Positions 1 to 5,288 of a stretch of DNA of 5,383 nucleotides are shown piece by piece. This stretch comes from a virus. Taxonomy: Duplodnaviria > Heunggongvirae > Uroviricota > Caudoviricetes. How positions within the stretch are numbered: the stretch's first letter is position 1; each line of letters opens with the position of its first letter. The notes beneath the pieces are model-generated. The model was given only the letters and a program-made list of their open reading frames with translations, was not told the origin of the DNA and made no database searches. The DNA is taken from the IMG/VR virus record IMGVR_UViG_2609459799_000011; one strand, written 5' to 3'. A program made the position numbers and the translations under genes.

Positions 1-91
1 GAGTCCCCACCTTGGTTAAACAACGCTTTGGCTCACAGTTTACAACAGGCATGTTAAGCCGTCTCGCAGAGATGTTATTGCAGCGAATATA

Positions 92-185
92 GCGCGGCGA
101 TTTTTTTGATACCGATTTGCATTTCATTTGATACCGCTGAAAAACGCCGATACGCAACTTATTTGATACTAAATCGGCGCTTTTC
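92..185. repeat. Direct repeats of TTTGATAC(C/T) at 105-113, 127-135 and 162-170, flanked by inverted AAATCG(G/C)CGC-like elements (92-103 and 171-182); candidate protein-binding or end-repeat array.
   Basis: Read directly from the sequence: three 9-bp copies spaced 22 and 35 bp apart; GCGCGGCGATTT (92-103) is a near reverse complement of AAATCGGCGC (171-180). Confidence 0.5.
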
Positions 186-215
186 TTTTGGGTTTTAGAA
201 TGAGTTTTTAAGCGC

Positions 216-953
216 TCATTCACTCTCTTTCAAACCAGTTTTAACTGTTTGGGGTTTTGGGTAAGGCTGGACTTTGAATAGCTTTATGTTGAGGCGTTTT
301 CTGGCCCTCTTGTTCAGAAACCGGATGTAACGAAACTGTCGGAACTTATGAACACTGGCTCTGTCGATATTAGCCCTCAGATGTTCACCTCGTTGTCCGC
401 CTCGTTTAATGGCATTCCTGCAAATCTCGTGATACCACTCGCCATCAAGTTCATAGAATGTTGATTCATGGCTGCCTACATAATCAAAATTGCTTGCCTG
501 ATACACGACACCAAGACAGCCACAACGCTCATCTGCAAACGACTGAACCCACTGTACCTGCGGATAAAGCTGTCTGATAAGTTTGAGTGCGTAACTGATG
601 GCCCTTGATTCGGAGTTTCTCGGCATACAGTCATGCAGCCATAACCGGTTAAGCTCCATATATTCGCGGTTCTGCGTACCGGTTACGACGCGCGCTCCAC
701 TGTTTGGATTAAGGGCATAACCCCATTGCATTACGCCAACCAGCTCTCGTTCTGAAAATATACCCAGATGAAGGTAGGAGTTATTTACGAAACGGTGGCT
801 GTAATGTTTATTGACGATGACCAGTCGGGCCAGCCAGCAACTTATTGTCTCAACCCGTAACTCACGGGAGCCATAACCGACGATATTGTCGTTATAGAGA
901 ATAAGTTCAGGCGTGCTGATGATACGGGATGTAACTTGTTTTCTGTTCCCCAC
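216..953 (-). CDS. mom: Mom-like DNA modification protein (adenine-modifying anti-restriction function of Mu-like phages), 245 aa, probable GTG start.
   Basis: 245-aa ORF starts with GTG (no in-frame ATG until about residue 75), overlaps the 3' end of the upstream zinc-finger com-like gene by 47 nt in another frame, and has AGGAA 8 nt upstream. Identity is from synteny with com and gin; Mom sequence itself is not recalled. Confidence 0.75.
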
Positions 954-1107
954 GACAGGATTTCCTTGTGTATGTGGGGTGCTCTGTGGCGCTCGGAGAT
1001 GTGATTTGATTGAGGGTTTTACAGCGCGGACATTTTACTTCCAGATAACTGAAACTGGCCCGTGCCAGTAACTTGTTGCAGTGTCGGCACCGTATGTTTC
1101 GATACAT
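907..1107 (-). CDS. com: Com-like zinc-finger translational activator of mom, 66 aa.
   Basis: ATG start with AGGAGG about 10 nt upstream. Cys pairs CRHC and CPRC resemble the Mu Com zinc finger, and the N-terminus ([14 protein letters not shown]) resembles recalled Mu Com (MKSIRCKNCNKLL). It overlaps the mom start. Confidence 0.75.
948..979 (-). promoter_or_regulatory. mRNA stem-loop sequestering the mom start codon and Shine-Dalgarno (translation-inhibition structure).
   Basis: On the minus strand CCCCAC (plus 974-979) pairs with GUGGGG (plus 948-953), which contains the GUG start; the loop holds AAGGAAA, and CAAGGA can pair with UCCUGU inside it. Confidence 0.5.
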
Positions 1108-1330
1108 GGCCGCATAACCTCCTGCTTTGTTGATGATATCTTTCTCGCCTAATCGATCGACAAAAACGATCGATTCGATGTGTTTAATTGATACAACAAA
1201 TAGATTGAAAAGTCATCAACAATGATTCAGGGAGGTGATTATTTACTAAAAGAAAACGAAGACTTAGGGTGTGAAAACGATCATAAAATGATCATTTTAT
1301 TGACTTTTTATCCAGTGAAGGTAGGATCGC
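1108..1330 (-). promoter_or_regulatory. GATC-rich upstream region of com-mom; candidate Dam-methylation-sensitive promoter control region.
   Basis: Five GATC sites in about 175 bp (1155, 1168, 1279, 1290, 1324), in palindromic contexts: TCGATCGA (1153-1160), CGATCGAT (1167-1174), and the 14-bp perfect palindrome AAAATGATCATTTT (1285-1298). No promoter hexamers could be assigned with confidence. Confidence 0.4.
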
Positions 1331-1367
1331 GCGCATATGTAGTATGTTTCAAATCAACAGGATACTA

Positions 1368-1406
1368 CATAAAAGGGAAACCCAGCATAGCTGGAACTAT
1401 GCTGGG
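1368..1406 (-). terminator. Candidate rho-independent terminator for leftward transcription.
   Basis: Perfect 10-bp inverted repeat CCCAGCATAG (1381-1390) / CTATGCTGGG (1397-1406) with a 6-nt loop; on the minus strand it is followed by UUUCCCUUUU. Confidence 0.45.
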
Positions 1407-1513
1407 TCAATCTGTAAAAACTTGCATCAATGCTTTACTTCGAGCTCGTGGCGTATCCTATGATATTCCCCGGTCTCCTGTAAAGCAGAGATATATCTGT
1501 TCAGGCAGGAAAA

Positions 1514-1720
1514 ATGGATAAACTAACCACAGACCCAAAGTTACAGGCTGCGCGAATTGCAGCTGATATTACAATTGCAGCAATGACATCCACCAGGGGT
1601 AACTTTACCTCTTTTCATACAGCAGGTGATTCATCCGCTATGCAGTTATGGAACGCGTGCTTTTCTGATGTAATTCGTGCAATCAGCGAGTCAGTTGACC
1701 TTCGCGAACCGCAAAAATAG
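1514..1720 (+). CDS. Hypothetical small protein, 68 aa.
   Basis: ATG preceded by AGGCAGGAAAA. It is convergent with the next ORF and overlaps its 3' end by 38 nt, so one of the two may be spurious. No recognisable motif. Confidence 0.35.
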   Translation: MDKLTTDPKLQAARIAADITIAAMTSTRGNFTSFHTAGDSSAMQLWNACFSDVIRAISESVDLREPQK

Positions 1721-1883
1721 CGCATCTTGGGGTACACAGGATCTGCATAGCTATCCACATTGCGGTGGCGAAGTTTCGATCCTGTAATGTATCTTCATCA
1801 AGTCCTGAACGTAGCGCATTGATAATTTCCGCGCTTAATCTTTCTAGGCCTTTGGTATCAGGTTGCTTTTTATTCTTGTCCAT
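1683..1883 (-). CDS. Hypothetical small protein, 66 aa from the internal ATG (78 aa if the upstream ATG at 1919 is used).
   Basis: The internal ATG at 1883 has AGAGGA 8 nt upstream; the ATG at 1919 has no Shine-Dalgarno. Same strand as the two small genes upstream. Confidence 0.4.
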   Translation of the reverse strand: MDKNKKQPDTKGLERLSAEIINALRSGLDEDTLQDRNFATAMWIAMQILCTPRCAIFAVREGQLTR

Positions 1884-1958
1884 GATTATTGTCCTCTGAT
1901 TGGTATATAAAGCGCCCATGAAAATAAAACCGACAGGAGAAACTGCCGGTTTGTATTG

Positions 1959-2213
1959 TTACATCATGGTGCTGTCAGTTCCGGGCTGAGCCGGTTCTGG
2001 TTGCTCTGGCTGCGCGTCGGTTTTCGGTTCATTATCAGCATCACTGGCCGCTGCTGCTGGCCCAATAAGTTTTTCCAGCACCTCATCAACGTAAGTGTCG
2101 ATTTGTGCCTCAAAATCCTTGCGGACCTGCGCTTTCAGCAACTTATTTACTTCACCGGAATACAGTGCCTGTTTTACCAGGTCTTCAGTGACGGTGCCTT
2201 TAATTTCTGGCAT
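1959..2213 (-). CDS. Hypothetical acidic protein, 84 aa, with a helical-looking N-terminal half and a Pro/Ala/Gln/Glu-rich tail.
   Basis: ATG with strong AAGGAGG 6 nt upstream; 35 nt downstream of the preceding small gene; acidic composition. Confidence 0.55.
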   Translation of the reverse strand: MPEIKGTVTEDLVKQALYSGEVNKLLKAQVRKDFEAQIDTYVDEVLEKLIGPAAAASDADNEPKTDAQPEQPEPAQPGTDSTMM

Positions 2214-2248
2214 GTATATCCTCCTTATGCGGGAATAAAGCCCTGCAA

Positions 2249-2431
2249 TCAGGGCTGGGTCGGGTCTTTTGGGAGCGGAGTTGCCTGCGCTGTTTTACTG
2301 AGTTTTTCAGCTGCTGCGTCCTCAATTTTGCGGCGAACATAATTTCTGATGGCCTTATAACCACCACTCACCAGATATAACGCACATACTGCCGTGCAGA
2401 AATACAATAAAATAAGCTGTAAAAATGTCAT
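2249..2431 (-). CDS. Hypothetical small single-pass membrane protein, 60 aa from ATG at 2431 (the ORF track starts at a TTG at 2443).
   Basis: ATG at 2431 with GGGAGGG 5 nt upstream. Residues about 3-23 (FLQLILLYFCTAVCALYLVSG) form a hydrophobic helix followed by a charged tail. Confidence 0.5.
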   Translation of the reverse strand: MTFLQLILLYFCTAVCALYLVSGGYKAIRNYVRRKIEDAAAEKLSKTAQATPLPKDPTQP

Positions 2432-2526
2432 TATCCCTCCCAATTATTGACATGGTGTTGACACCGGTAATATCTGTTAGGTAAAAAGGTGCACTGCATT
2501 TTTTGCTTTGGATATAACGATCTTTT

Positions 2527-2568
2527 TGCCGCCGGTTTCTTGTTTTCCCTTACCGGCGGCATTTTTTT
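2527..2568 (+). terminator. Rho-independent terminator oriented for rightward (plus-strand) transcription, with no plus-strand gene upstream.
   Basis: 10-bp stem TGCCGCCGGT (2527-2536) / ACCGGCGGCA (2552-2561) followed by TTTTTTT (2562-2568). On the minus strand the hairpin is followed by A-rich sequence, so it is not a canonical terminator for the esterase gene. Confidence 0.45.
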
Positions 2569-2575
2569 ATCCTGC

Positions 2576-4630
2576 TTACGCGTTATTCACTTCCACCACG
2601 ATACTGTCAATCAGTACCGGGTAAGTCGCATTTTTAGTGATATCGGTCACGCGCAACTTGTCTGCCGTAAACGTGCCGACCGGAGACTGCGACAGCATGA
2701 ATGGTGTCCCGTCCTTACCATCAATGACCGGCGTCACCTCAATACTGTTGTTACCGGCAAAACGGAAGCCCAGCGTATGCCATTCGTTATTAAATGCGCC
2801 GAATGACCCCAGCTTCGTGTTCTGCGCCGTGTTTCCTTTGTGATACATCACGTTAAGGTCTGTGGCATCGCTCTGTACGTAGAACGATGCCAGCAGGTTA
2901 TGACCGGCATTTCCTTCCAGAGTAACCCCTTGCGGCAGGGCAGAAACCGGCCAGTACAGCGCCAGTGCGTACTGATTAGCCGTAAGCGCGCCATCGAGTT
3001 TAAAACGACAACTGACAAGACCACCTTTACCCAGCAGGTCCGCACCATTACCAGCATCATGCTCAAGGTACCAGGGGGCTCTTCCTGTTTCCTTGGTCAG
3101 TTTCATTGCCTTACCCCCGCTGGCTCCGGCATCATCCACGATTTGAGCCTTGCCACCTCCGGCAGCCCAACCCTGTGGTGTCAACCGTCCTTCAGACTCA
3201 GATGCCCGGTAAGCAAATAGCGTACTCATCGTCGTGGTGTCTGCGGGTGGCGTGGACGGTTTTGATGGTGTATCAGGTGACGGCTTCTCATCCGGTGGTG
3301 TCACGGTCTGCCCGCGCATCAGTTCAGCCGTGCGCCCTGCATGGAGCATAATAGCTGAGGCCAGACGGTCTGAAATGACGCCCCTGCGTGCCCATGAGCT
3401 GAAATGGCTGTCACGCTGTGTCGAAACAAAACTGCCCTGGGTTCGGGATGCTGCACCGTAATACCCGACAGCCACAATATCCGGGTCTTCCGCCGGAGCA
3501 TTCGTTGGCGTGCTCTGTCCATTCTCATCCGTCAGGAACGGTACAAAGAAAATTTTCTGTGCTTCCTTGCCTTTGTAGCCACCGTATACTGCCTCATATT
3601 TATCGGTGCCAGCGTTTTTCCAGTAATACGTGGTATCACCGCAAATCCACGGCACCGTGGTGGCATTTCCACTCACGCACTGCGCAGCAAGCGGAGCCAG
3701 GTCAGTTCTGAACTGCTGAACCATGGCCGTGAATAAACTATTATGCTGCTGGCTTCCTGAGGCAAGGTCTGCCTCTCCCTGCATCCAGACCACAGCCAGA
3801 AGTTTGTTTTTCGGGTTTTTCGCCAGCGCGACTTTGGTGCGGCTTACCAGGTCCTGATACAGAGGTTTACCGGCCCCCCAGCGTGAAGAATCAGCGGAAG
3901 CACCGCTGGCCTCACTGAATGAGCCGTCGGCTCCAGTGGTGAATGCTGACCCGCCACGACAACAGGGCACCAGAAGTATCCCGGCATTCTGTGGGATATA
4001 GGGAAGCAGTTTTTTGGCAATATGCAACCCCTGACCGACAGTCCCGTACTGGCCTTTTGCCAGATCAGCTTTCGGGTGGTTTATCCCGCTCATATCCTGA
4101 ACATCATGCAGGCAGTGGTCTGCCGGAATGATGTCGTTGTATGTACACGACGTACCGTTGGGCGTTACCGTACTGCGGCGTGCCAGTTGCTTAATGCGTG
4201 GGTCCGGGCGGTCAAACGAATCCGGTAACGGCAGCCCCTCGCCGTAGGCCATGCCATTTGACTGACCCGCGAGAATGACAACAAAGTAATATTCCGGCTC
4301 TGAACTGCTGCCATTCGTGCTACCGGAAGGCCCGGCGTTATCCGGTGCATTCCAGTCGGAGGGCGTGAGCGTTCCGGCCACGTCAGATGTGATTGGAATG
4401 ATGCCAGTCACGCCTGAACTGGTGATTTCTGCACTGGGATTACCGGATACCGGCATTACCCATAATGGCTCTTTCGTGCTGAAGCGGATCACGCAGTCTG
4501 CGAAGGTGATCCCCCCTTTATTACCCGAAGGGCGGAAAGGGCTTTCAATAAATGCCACCGTGCCACCGGCAACCTTGACTGAAAACTCTCCGGGCATGGC
4601 GGAGAGCATTTTCCACTTGGAGTCTGACAT
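2576..4630 (-). CDS. Putative carbohydrate O-acetylesterase of the SASA/SGNH-hydrolase type (phage NanS-p-like), 684 aa, with a Pro/Thr-rich linker and lectin-like C-terminal domain.
   Basis: Motifs LAGQSNG (residues 120-126; Ser124 at nt 4259-4261), WMQGEAD (282-288) and DSH (407-409) resemble sialate O-acetylesterase family signatures as recalled. Linker QTVTPPDEKPSPDTPSKPSTPP is at about residues 441-468 (nt 3227-3310), followed by a roughly 215-residue C-terminal region. No N-terminal signal peptide is evident. Confidence 0.8.
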   Translation of the reverse strand: MSDSKWKMLSAMPGEFSVKVAGGTVAFIESPFRPSGNKGGITFADCVIRFSTKEPLWVMPVSGNPSAEITSSGVTGIIPITSDVAGTLTPSDWNAPDNAGPSGSTNGSSSEPEYYFVVILAGQSNGMAYGEGLPLPDSFDRPDPRIKQLARRSTVTPNGTSCTYNDIIPADHCLHDVQDMSGINHPKADLAKGQYGTVGQGLHIAKKLLPYIPQNAGILLVPCCRGGSAFTTGADGSFSEASGASADSSRWGAGKPLYQDLVSRTKVALAKNPKNKLLAVVWMQGEADLASGSQQHNSLFTAMVQQFRTDLAPLAAQCVSGNATTVPWICGDTTYYWKNAGTDKYEAVYGGYKGKEAQKIFFVPFLTDENGQSTPTNAPAEDPDIVAVGYYGAASRTQGSFVSTQRDSHFSSWARRGVISDRLASAIMLHAGRTAELMRGQTVTPPDEKPSPDTPSKPSTPPADTTTMSTLFAYRASESEGRLTPQGWAAGGGKAQIVDDAGASGGKAMKLTKETGRAPWYLEHDAGNGADLLGKGGLVSCRFKLDGALTANQYALALYWPVSALPQGVTLEGNAGHNLLASFYVQSDATDLNVMYHKGNTAQNTKLGSFGAFNNEWHTLGFRFAGNNSIEVTPVIDGKDGTPFMLSQSPVGTFTADKLRVTDITKNATYPVLIDSIVVEVNNA

Positions 4631-4703
4631 CGTCTTTTCTGCCTGTTTCTGAATTAAACAGAGTCAGAATAGCGACCGCTGAAAAATATGTGTTTTGCGG
4701 AAA

Positions 4704-4735
4704 TTCAAAAAAGCGTCACGGTACTTTTGGTGACG
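4704..4735 (-). terminator. Weak candidate terminator overlapping the invertase stop codon.
   Basis: Minus strand: stem CGUCAC (plus 4730-4735) / GUGACG (plus 4714-4719) with a 10-nt loop, then C plus UUUUUU (plus A-run 4707-4712). The invertase stop codon lies within the 3' arm. Short stem and large loop suggest it is leaky. Confidence 0.35.
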
Positions 4736-5288
4736 GAGCTGGTGAGGCAGGAAAATAACGATAAAGGGTGGAAAGGCCAATATCAAATATCAGTGCGATT
4801 TGTTTACGGGACTCGCCATTAGCCAGCAAACGGGCGATTTGCTCCCGCTCTTTCTCTGTCAGTTTCTGAGGTCTGCCGCCATGACGCCCCTGAGCACGGG
4901 CAGCAGCAAGACCCGCGCGTGTACGTTCAATAATGAGTTCCCGCTCCATTTCCGCCAGCGCGCCCATTATATGGAAAAAGAAACGTCCCATGGGAGTGGA
5001 TGTATCAATATTGTCCGTAATGCTGCGGAAGTTAACGCCGCGTTGCCGGAGTTCTTCTGTTAAAAGGACAAGGTGCTGCATACTGCGTCCAAGGCGATCC
5101 AGTTTCCAGACCAGCAGGGTATCCCCTGGCCGGAGTCGCTTTAATGCGCGTTTAAGTCCGGGACGCTCCCTTGTCTTACCGCTTATTCTGTCTTCGAAAA
5201 ACAGCTCACATCCTGCACATTCCAGCGCATTTCTTTGTAGCGCCGTATTCTGGTCATTTGTTGACACCCTGATATACCCAATCAGCAT
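4716..5288 (-). CDS. gin: Serine DNA invertase of the Gin/Hin/Pin/Cin family, 190 aa.
   Basis: N-terminus MLIGYIRVSTNDQNT...LQRNAL, the stretch GDTLLVWKLDRLGRSM, MGRFFFHIMGALAEMERELIIERT and a C-terminal helix-turn-helix (LSTLYRY) closely match Gin and Hin as recalled. AAGGAA lies 5 nt upstream of the ATG. The symbol gin is chosen from the com-mom context. Confidence 0.9.
   Translation of the reverse strand: MLIGYIRVSTNDQNTALQRNALECAGCELFFEDRISGKTRERPGLKRALKRLRPGDTLLVWKLDRLGRSMQHLVLLTEELRQRGVNFRSITDNIDTSTPMGRFFFHIMGALAEMERELIIERTRAGLAAARAQGRHGGRPQKLTEKEREQIARLLANGESRKQIALIFDIGLSTLYRYFPASPAPSPKVP

Follow-up and report, generated by a model that had tools for sequence, protein, structure and literature searches.

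How can a gene be translated if its only possible start codon is a GUG that is predicted to be locked in a hairpin of its own messenger? This question is posed by the mom gene in a stretch of 5,383 nucleotides of viral DNA (IMG/VR record IMGVR_UViG_2609459799_000011), here called the window. In phage Mu the answer is a small protein, Com, described as a translational activator that binds the mom mRNA and without which mom is not translated (PMC6483171, PMC3378877). Here we ask whether the same answer holds for a diverged relative.

The prophage end and its genes

The window is the right end of an E. coli Mu-like prophage and bears the com-mom operon. On the minus strand the genes follow each other from gin (4716-5288, a profile match) via three cargo genes to com (1107-907), mom (953-216) and the phage terminus at 88. 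A comparison of three insertion sites assigns 1-87 to the host flank and 88-169 to the prophage right end, which consists of the terminal T at 88 and three direct repeats of the TTTGATAC type. From 88 the prophage reads TATAGCGCGGCG..., the Mu counterpart being TGAAGCGGCG. The repeats, each ending in TTTGATAC, occupy 97-112, 119-134 and 154-169 and are probably end-binding sites of the transposase. The insertion site is unlike that in two other genomes. The nearest phage records are the 'inserted Mu-like phage' regions of two Stx-converting phage entries (94% identity), and the mom DNA is about 71% identical to that of Mu, D108 and SfMu. At least 80% of window 1-2600 is present in 15 complete E. 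coli genomes. In strain NCCP 13983, the one genome inspected, RefSeq annotates exactly the same com and mom CDSs.

Between gin and com sits a cargo block of about 3.4 kb (window 1400-4700), which Mu does not have. The block includes a gene (2576-4630) for a 684-aa protein that combines a SASA carbohydrate-esterase domain with DUF6645, a DUF1378 gene (2249-2443) and a DUF826 gene (1959-2213). A search of the phage collection with the block yielded almost no DNA match, and an NCBIfam search with Com, Mom and the cargo proteins gave no matches. In its make-up the block is presumably similar to the esterase/DUF1378/DUF826 region of lambdoid Stx phages. A weak Rfam match to the EHEC sRNA Esr41 (2488-2570, plus strand) is located between the esterase gene and DUF1378; with 22 bits versus a gathering score of 102 and E = 0.68 it is probably due to chance. 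Two plus-strand ORFs, 1222-1521 (99 aa) and 1514-1720 (68 aa), diverge from com. Neither of them found a match in Pfam or NCBIfam, and RefSeq labels the former an incomplete hypothetical protein.

The region upstream of com is rich in GATC, the site of Dam. Five of the 12 sites in the 5.4-kb window fall in 174 bp (1155-1328), which we regard as a putative Dam-sensitive com-mom promoter region. A perfect 9-bp inverted repeat, AATCGATCG-N7-CGATCGATT (1151-1175), holds two such sites. Enteric com loci have 2-5 GATC per 250 nt upstream of com, whereas the remainder of these loci has about 0.1-1.5 per 250 nt; upstream of com in the Pseudomonas and Desulfovibrio loci there is none. In Mu, com-mom is under Dam/OxyR control (PMC3378877), and by analogy the cluster would fit a host-specific control of this kind. 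A sigma-70 promoter scan revealed no convincing com-mom promoter, the region upstream of com could not be aligned with Mu Pmom, and the gene for the late activator C lies outside the window. Two strong hairpins of the terminator type, each with a U-tract on the coding strand, are seen at 1379-1408 and 1927-1952 (both minus). One of these ends about 270 nt upstream of com and, therefore, com-mom probably has its own promoter between 1379 and 1124.

The com CDS (907-1107, minus strand, 66 aa) was taken from the list of open reading frames and is the same in RefSeq. As read from the sequence, its ATG (1107-1105) is preceded at a distance of 10 nt by the Shine-Dalgarno sequence AGGAGG (1118-1123, minus strand). 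The protein matches Pfam PF10122 (Zn_ribbon_Com) with E = 2e-12, which is above the curated cut-off. An alignment with Mu Com, as the initial annotation had proposed, shows 45% identity (E = 2e-14), and the zinc cysteines C7, C10, C26 and C29 are invariant among 9 aligned homologues. Judged from these similarities, Com is a CCCC zinc-ribbon protein and would act as a translational activator. A PDB sequence search with Com yielded no Com structure, only a weak similarity to the eS27 zinc ribbon. Nor does a structure of a Com-RNA complex exist (PMC6483171).

The mom start and the predicted structure that encloses it

The mom CDS (216-953, minus strand) encodes a DNA adenine hypermodification enzyme of 245 aa. 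Its non-ATG start had not kept the initial annotation from calling it mom, and rightly so: the protein matches Pfam Mom with E = 2.4e-77, and its identity to Mu Mom amounts to 79% over 233 aa. RefSeq has an identical CDS of 738 nt under the name 'Mom family adenine methylcarbamoylation protein'. The alignment with Mu Mom begins at residue 1 of both proteins; therefore the GUG of the window (951-953) is homologous to that of Mu. That mom lacks an ATG start is confirmed by its frame. The next upstream in-frame stop is TAA at 1037-1035, no ATG, GTG or TTG occurs between this stop and GTG 953, and the first in-frame start thereafter is an ATG at codon 75. Thus, GTG 953-951 is the only possible start. 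The codon-75 ATG was considered as a start and rejected, since it would drop residues that are invariant among Mom homologues, e.g., S9, R10, G26 and G28. In Mu, an in-frame AUG lies 10 codons before the GUG and is taken by RefSeq as the start, whereas the window has no such AUG. The assignment of the GUG is therefore cleaner here than in Mu. The genes com and mom overlap by 47 nt in different frames; by the same measure, the overlap in Mu is 50 nt.

The GUG is part of the 3' arm of a predicted hairpin, the translation inhibition structure (TIS; 948-979, minus strand). Its outer stem is built from CCCCAC (979-974) and GUGGGG (953-948), which enclose a loop of 20 nt. The loop harbours the mom Shine-Dalgarno sequence AGGA (963-966), 9 nt upstream of the GUG, and this sequence is itself partly paired to CCU 959-957: A966, G965 and G964 are predicted to form an inner helix with U957, C958 and C959. 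The initial annotation had placed the GUG and the Shine-Dalgarno sequence in a stem-loop at 948-979 within the 3' end of com, and the coordinates proved to be exact.

The TIS stem appears in the minimum free energy structure of segments of 46, 71 and 251 nt, the GUG is paired with a probability of 0.99-1.0, and the Shine-Dalgarno guanines G965 and G964 are paired with a probability of 0.97-0.98, C958 and C959 being their partners (P = 0.97). All six pairs of the outer stem have probabilities of 0.98-1.00 in five contexts from 71 to 925 nt. In consequence, a competing fold that would free the GUG was not found in any of the five contexts up to 925 nt, and the folding check suggested at the outset came out in favour of the TIS. 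The hairpin alone has a dG of -11.5 kcal/mol; the segment comprising Com site and TIS reaches -13.7, the Mu equivalent -10.7 kcal/mol. When compared with dinucleotide shuffles, however, the 46-nt segment attains a z of -2.4 only, 4 of 200 shuffles being no less stable, and the 71-nt segment shows a weak excess (z = -1.0). Folding statistics alone are unconvincing, because this excess over shuffles is modest. Energies for opening the ribosome binding site are not discriminating either: 14.1 kcal/mol for mom, 10.9 for com's own site and 10.6 for Mu mom. The pairing probability of the start codon does not separate com-positive from com-less mom loci and was, for this reason, not used as evidence. 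The 4227 families of Rfam gave no match with E <= 1 for region 907-1107.

Comparison of related loci provides stronger evidence than folding that the TIS is beyond chance. Its arms are present in all 15-16 unique enteric com-mom variants that were aligned, and CCCAC/GUGGG is invariant in them, except for a single C-to-U change, which leaves a wobble pair. The enclosed loop differs in sequence and measures anything from 11 to 20 nt. The outermost pair is C-G in the clade of the window, U-A in that of Mu, or U.G. The conservation of the arms could, of course, partly reflect the overlapping reading frames (His-Pro-Thr in com, Met-Gly in mom), because the arms are nearly invariant.

The probable Com site and its distribution

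Directly 5' of the TIS lies a second element that the initial annotation did not mention. It is a putative Com-binding hairpin (979-992, minus strand) of the sequence GCGC[CACAGA]GCAC, with the loop CACAGA at 988-983. Its stem comprises G992-C979, the mismatch C991xA980, G990-C981 and the closing pair C989-G982. The zinc finger of Com selects the bipartite motif GAG(N)2CC(N)2-3GAG(N)2CC in SELEX experiments (PMC6483171), and the window offers GAGCGCC-ACA-GAGCACC at 978-994 (minus strand), an exact match to GAGNNCC-N3-GAGNNCC. The window contains no second exact match to the motif, and 200 shuffles produced not a single one. The hairpin aligns base for base with the Com-binding hairpin of Mu, AUGC[CUGCGA]GCAU, and scores 34.5 bits with a covariance model. 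By analogy with Mu, it would be the place where Com binds. In the predicted free RNA it is weak (P <= 0.2). The mismatch C991xA980 weakens the stem in the lineage of the window; it is common to the relatives L029 and L030, while L022 has U-A at this position.

For comparison, 80 viral and 49 genomic mom loci were collected and their com-mom junctions aligned. The result was 34 non-identical Com-site hairpins ranging from enteric phages through Pseudomonas, Desulfovibrio and Rhodospirillaceae, a count that leans towards structure because some of the sites were chosen by eye or by covariance model. In these sites, 96.3% of the stem cells are standard pairs. All four stem pairs show compensatory double changes (34 cells), and none of 500 shuffles reached the observed values. 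When the partner column was slid by 1-3, the covariation signal was lost. A more independent test made use of a covariance model built from 14 enteric seeds only. Among distant com-positive loci, 12 distinct ones yielded a site (E<0.02), on the right strand and 20-60 nt before the mom start; a search of 11 loci without com upstream yielded no Com site. RNAalifold, applied to 15 enteric sequences, independently predicted both hairpins.

The two hairpins may share a nucleotide. In the alignment of enteric sequences, the column that contains C979 (column 18) pairs with column 5 as GC 7, AU 6 and GU 2 times, and with column 49 as CG 7, UA 7 and UG 1 times. It is plausible from these sequences that C979 is common to the Com hairpin, with G992 as partner, and to the TIS, with G948 as partner. 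A Com-stabilised hairpin would therefore remove the terminal pair of the TIS. The sharing suggests how such a hairpin could begin the unzipping of the TIS, the number of independent lineages behind it being few.

The loci also differ in their starts. Among enteric and other gammaproteobacterial loci with a Mom at least 74% identical to that of the window, the presence of com mostly goes along with a GUG in a CCCAC/GUGGG stem; exceptions are found in the L111/L086/L033 group, which has an AUG start and lacks these arms. Homologues of mom (about 70-78% identity) without com upstream (L075-L077, L080-L083, L085, L088, L092, L094, L096 and L097) start at ATG or TTG and have neither the CCCAC/GUGGG arms nor the Com-site hairpin. 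Distant com-positive loci mostly start at AUG.

Those distant loci seem to hide their start in a different way. In com-mom loci of Pseudomonas, Desulfovibrio and Rhodospirillaceae (L099-L127), the start-codon region is complementary to the loop of the Com site. Examples are GCCAUGG/CCAUGGC, GCCACGG/CCGUGGC with a GUG start (L113), and, for start region and Com-site loop of L105, GGCCAUGGA/UCCAUGGCC. Com binding and sequestration of the start would, therefore, be mutually exclusive. When the best partner of the start-codon region was determined in 22 distant loci, it overlapped a Com-type hairpin in 15 of them versus 8.3 expected from position alone, which is suggestive only, because the loci are phylogenetically related. 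There is one case of covariation between loop and start codon, CACGG with a GUG start. In many loci of this group, two Com-type hairpins follow each other in tandem 20-60 nt before mom. Does the combination of Com hairpin and occluded start site represent a widespread, uncatalogued Com-responsive RNA switch, which works via competition for shared nucleotides? We would give this idea slightly less than an even chance. If so, the lineage of the window would be a 'double-locked' variant with an extra anti-Shine-Dalgarno helix and a weakened Com hairpin. The 34 covarying Com sites in two architectures could seed an RNA family; Rfam has none.

The proposed switch, its rivals and its known relatives

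We are confident, though not certain, that the com-mom operon of the window is controlled after transcription by the switch known from phage Mu. The gene identities and the unique GUG are observed; to these come the conserved TIS as predicted by folding and alignment and a covarying candidate Com hairpin with the SELEX motif. Every sequence-level feature of the Mu Com/mom system that is testable here is present, which supports the match with the Mu mechanism that the initial annotation had seen. The switch would operate as follows. On a bicistronic mRNA, com would be translated from its ordinary AGGAGG/AUG site. The ribosome binding site of mom would stay closed, with the GUG (953-951) held in the stem by CCCCAC (979-974) and the Shine-Dalgarno guanines by the inner CCU. 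Com would then bind to the small hairpin 992-979 (loop CACAGA, motif CC-N3-GAG) immediately 5' of the TIS. Its binding would destabilise the adjacent TIS and expose Shine-Dalgarno sequence and GUG, as in Mu; Mom would thus be made only once Com has accumulated.

The initial annotation called this relationship 'translational coupling', which is a misnomer. In classical coupling by termination and reinitiation the upstream stop is found at or near the downstream start; here, the com stop (909-907) lies 44 nt 3' of the mom GUG, and in Mu it is the Com protein that activates. Termination-reinitiation coupling is therefore not supported. A coupling in cis could nevertheless be envisaged in which ribosomes translating com melt the 979-948 hairpin and let mom initiate, the Com protein being unneeded. 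The com frame indeed runs through the whole TIS before its stop, and a com-mom overlap of 44-68 nt is kept in most com-positive loci. Yet the position of the stop makes a reinitiation geometrically unlikely, and a covarying, conserved hairpin with the SELEX motif adjoins the TIS. According to Wulczyn, Boelker and Kahmann (1989), Com is reportedly active when supplied in trans. We consider a pure cis mechanism unlikely, also in view of Mu, where mom is reported to need Com for its translation and where Com binds the corresponding RNA (PMC3378877, PMC6483171). Ribosomes translating com must cross the TIS, however, and their melting of it may contribute.

Still less probable is the view that the hairpin is a by-product of two overlapping coding frames without any regulation, mom being weakly translated from its GUG. 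It would be in line with the TIS arms being nearly invariant instead of covarying, with the modest significance against shuffles (z of -2.4 for 46 nt and -1.0 for 71 nt) and with the failure of generic pairing measures to discriminate. Against it stand the arms, which are kept at synonymous positions (the Pro codon is always CCC) while the loop between them changes in length (11-20 nt) and sequence, and the compensatory change from C-G to U-A in the outermost pair. Moreover, phage Chuche has the same arms before an unrelated methyltransferase gene, and the homologous structure of Mu has experimental support (PMC6483171). Hardly credible at all is the possibility that Com is a DNA transcription factor and the RNA structures are irrelevant. 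It is backed by the RefSeq product name only: the same com gene (L133 4325-4525) is listed there as 'Com family DNA-binding transcriptional regulator'. This name is probably misleading, because published work describes Com as an RNA-binding translational activator. By SELEX, EMSA and SHAPE the Com zinc finger was shown to bind RNA specifically (PMC6483171), and the window contains the corresponding RNA motif, which is conserved.

The preferred reading, the Mu-type switch opened by Com, does not overturn anything in the current understanding of Com and mom. The switch of the window is a clear but ordinary copy of that of Mu, and its genes are already annotated as Com and Mom in RefSeq. Its value for annotation is that it justifies the non-ATG start of mom and marks an unannotated cis-regulatory RNA at 992-948. 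As a diverged natural variant of a textbook activator system, it could help to define what it is that Com recognises and in which way its binding opens the TIS.

The closest known relative is the com-mom operon of phage Mu itself (Hattman; Wulczyn and Kahmann; PMC6483171). [quoted passage not shown] The Mu TIS, too, has the GUG within its stem (PMC6483171), i.e., in both phages the codon is part of the 3' arm of a CCCAC/GUGGG stem with the Shine-Dalgarno sequence enclosed. Immediately 5' of the TIS, each phage has a hairpin of 4 bp, whose 6-nt loop has the form C-N3-GA and is closed by a C-G pair; in both, GATC sites cluster upstream. The differences are those of a diverged copy. Com has 66 aa instead of 62 in Mu at 45% identity, with cysteines at 7, 10, 26 and 29 instead of 6, 9, 26 and 29. 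The TIS loop measures 20 nt versus 7-11 nt in Mu, and the outer stem has a sixth C-G pair beyond that of Mu. The Shine-Dalgarno sequence is sequestered by the extra AGG/CCU inner helix, whereas Mu uses G.U pairs (CCCACGG/UUGUGGG). Unlike in Mu, the Com hairpin has a C-A mismatch, and 3.4 kb of cargo separate gin from com.

Homologues of Com are also associated with DNA adenine methyltransferases, as in FluMu (hin1523), Pnm1 and phage B3, where the Com gene overlaps or precedes the modification gene (PMC3299994). Possible Com sites have been noted at hin1523, and Com sites of other Mu-like prophages, too, have already received comment (PMC3299994). The downstream gene of the window, in contrast, is a true Mom homologue and not a methyltransferase as in the FluMu, Pnm1, B3 and Chuche loci. 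In Escherichia phage Chuche (L003 1960-2160, minus strand), it is a DNA methyltransferase gene, and not mom, that the Com homologue overlaps. A Com-type hairpin (22.8 bits) and CCCCAC/GUGGGG arms are nonetheless retained at this locus, and the annotated start, an AUG, precedes the GUGGGG arm by 5 nt. This suggests that Com and its RNA form a module that is portable between modification genes.

The classical couplings with AUGA or UGAUG junctions likewise involve two overlapping cistrons with the downstream ribosome binding site buried inside the upstream gene. The window differs from them by a stop 44 nt past the start and by a dedicated RNA-binding protein with its own site. A more distant analogy, drawn by Hattman and in PMC6483171, is that with Tat and TAR of HIV. 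There, as here, a small basic or zinc-binding viral protein meets a hexaloop hairpin with CC-N-GAG and a C-G closing pair. The two systems are, however, evolutionarily unrelated: Tat-TAR controls transcription elongation, while Com acts on the initiation of translation.
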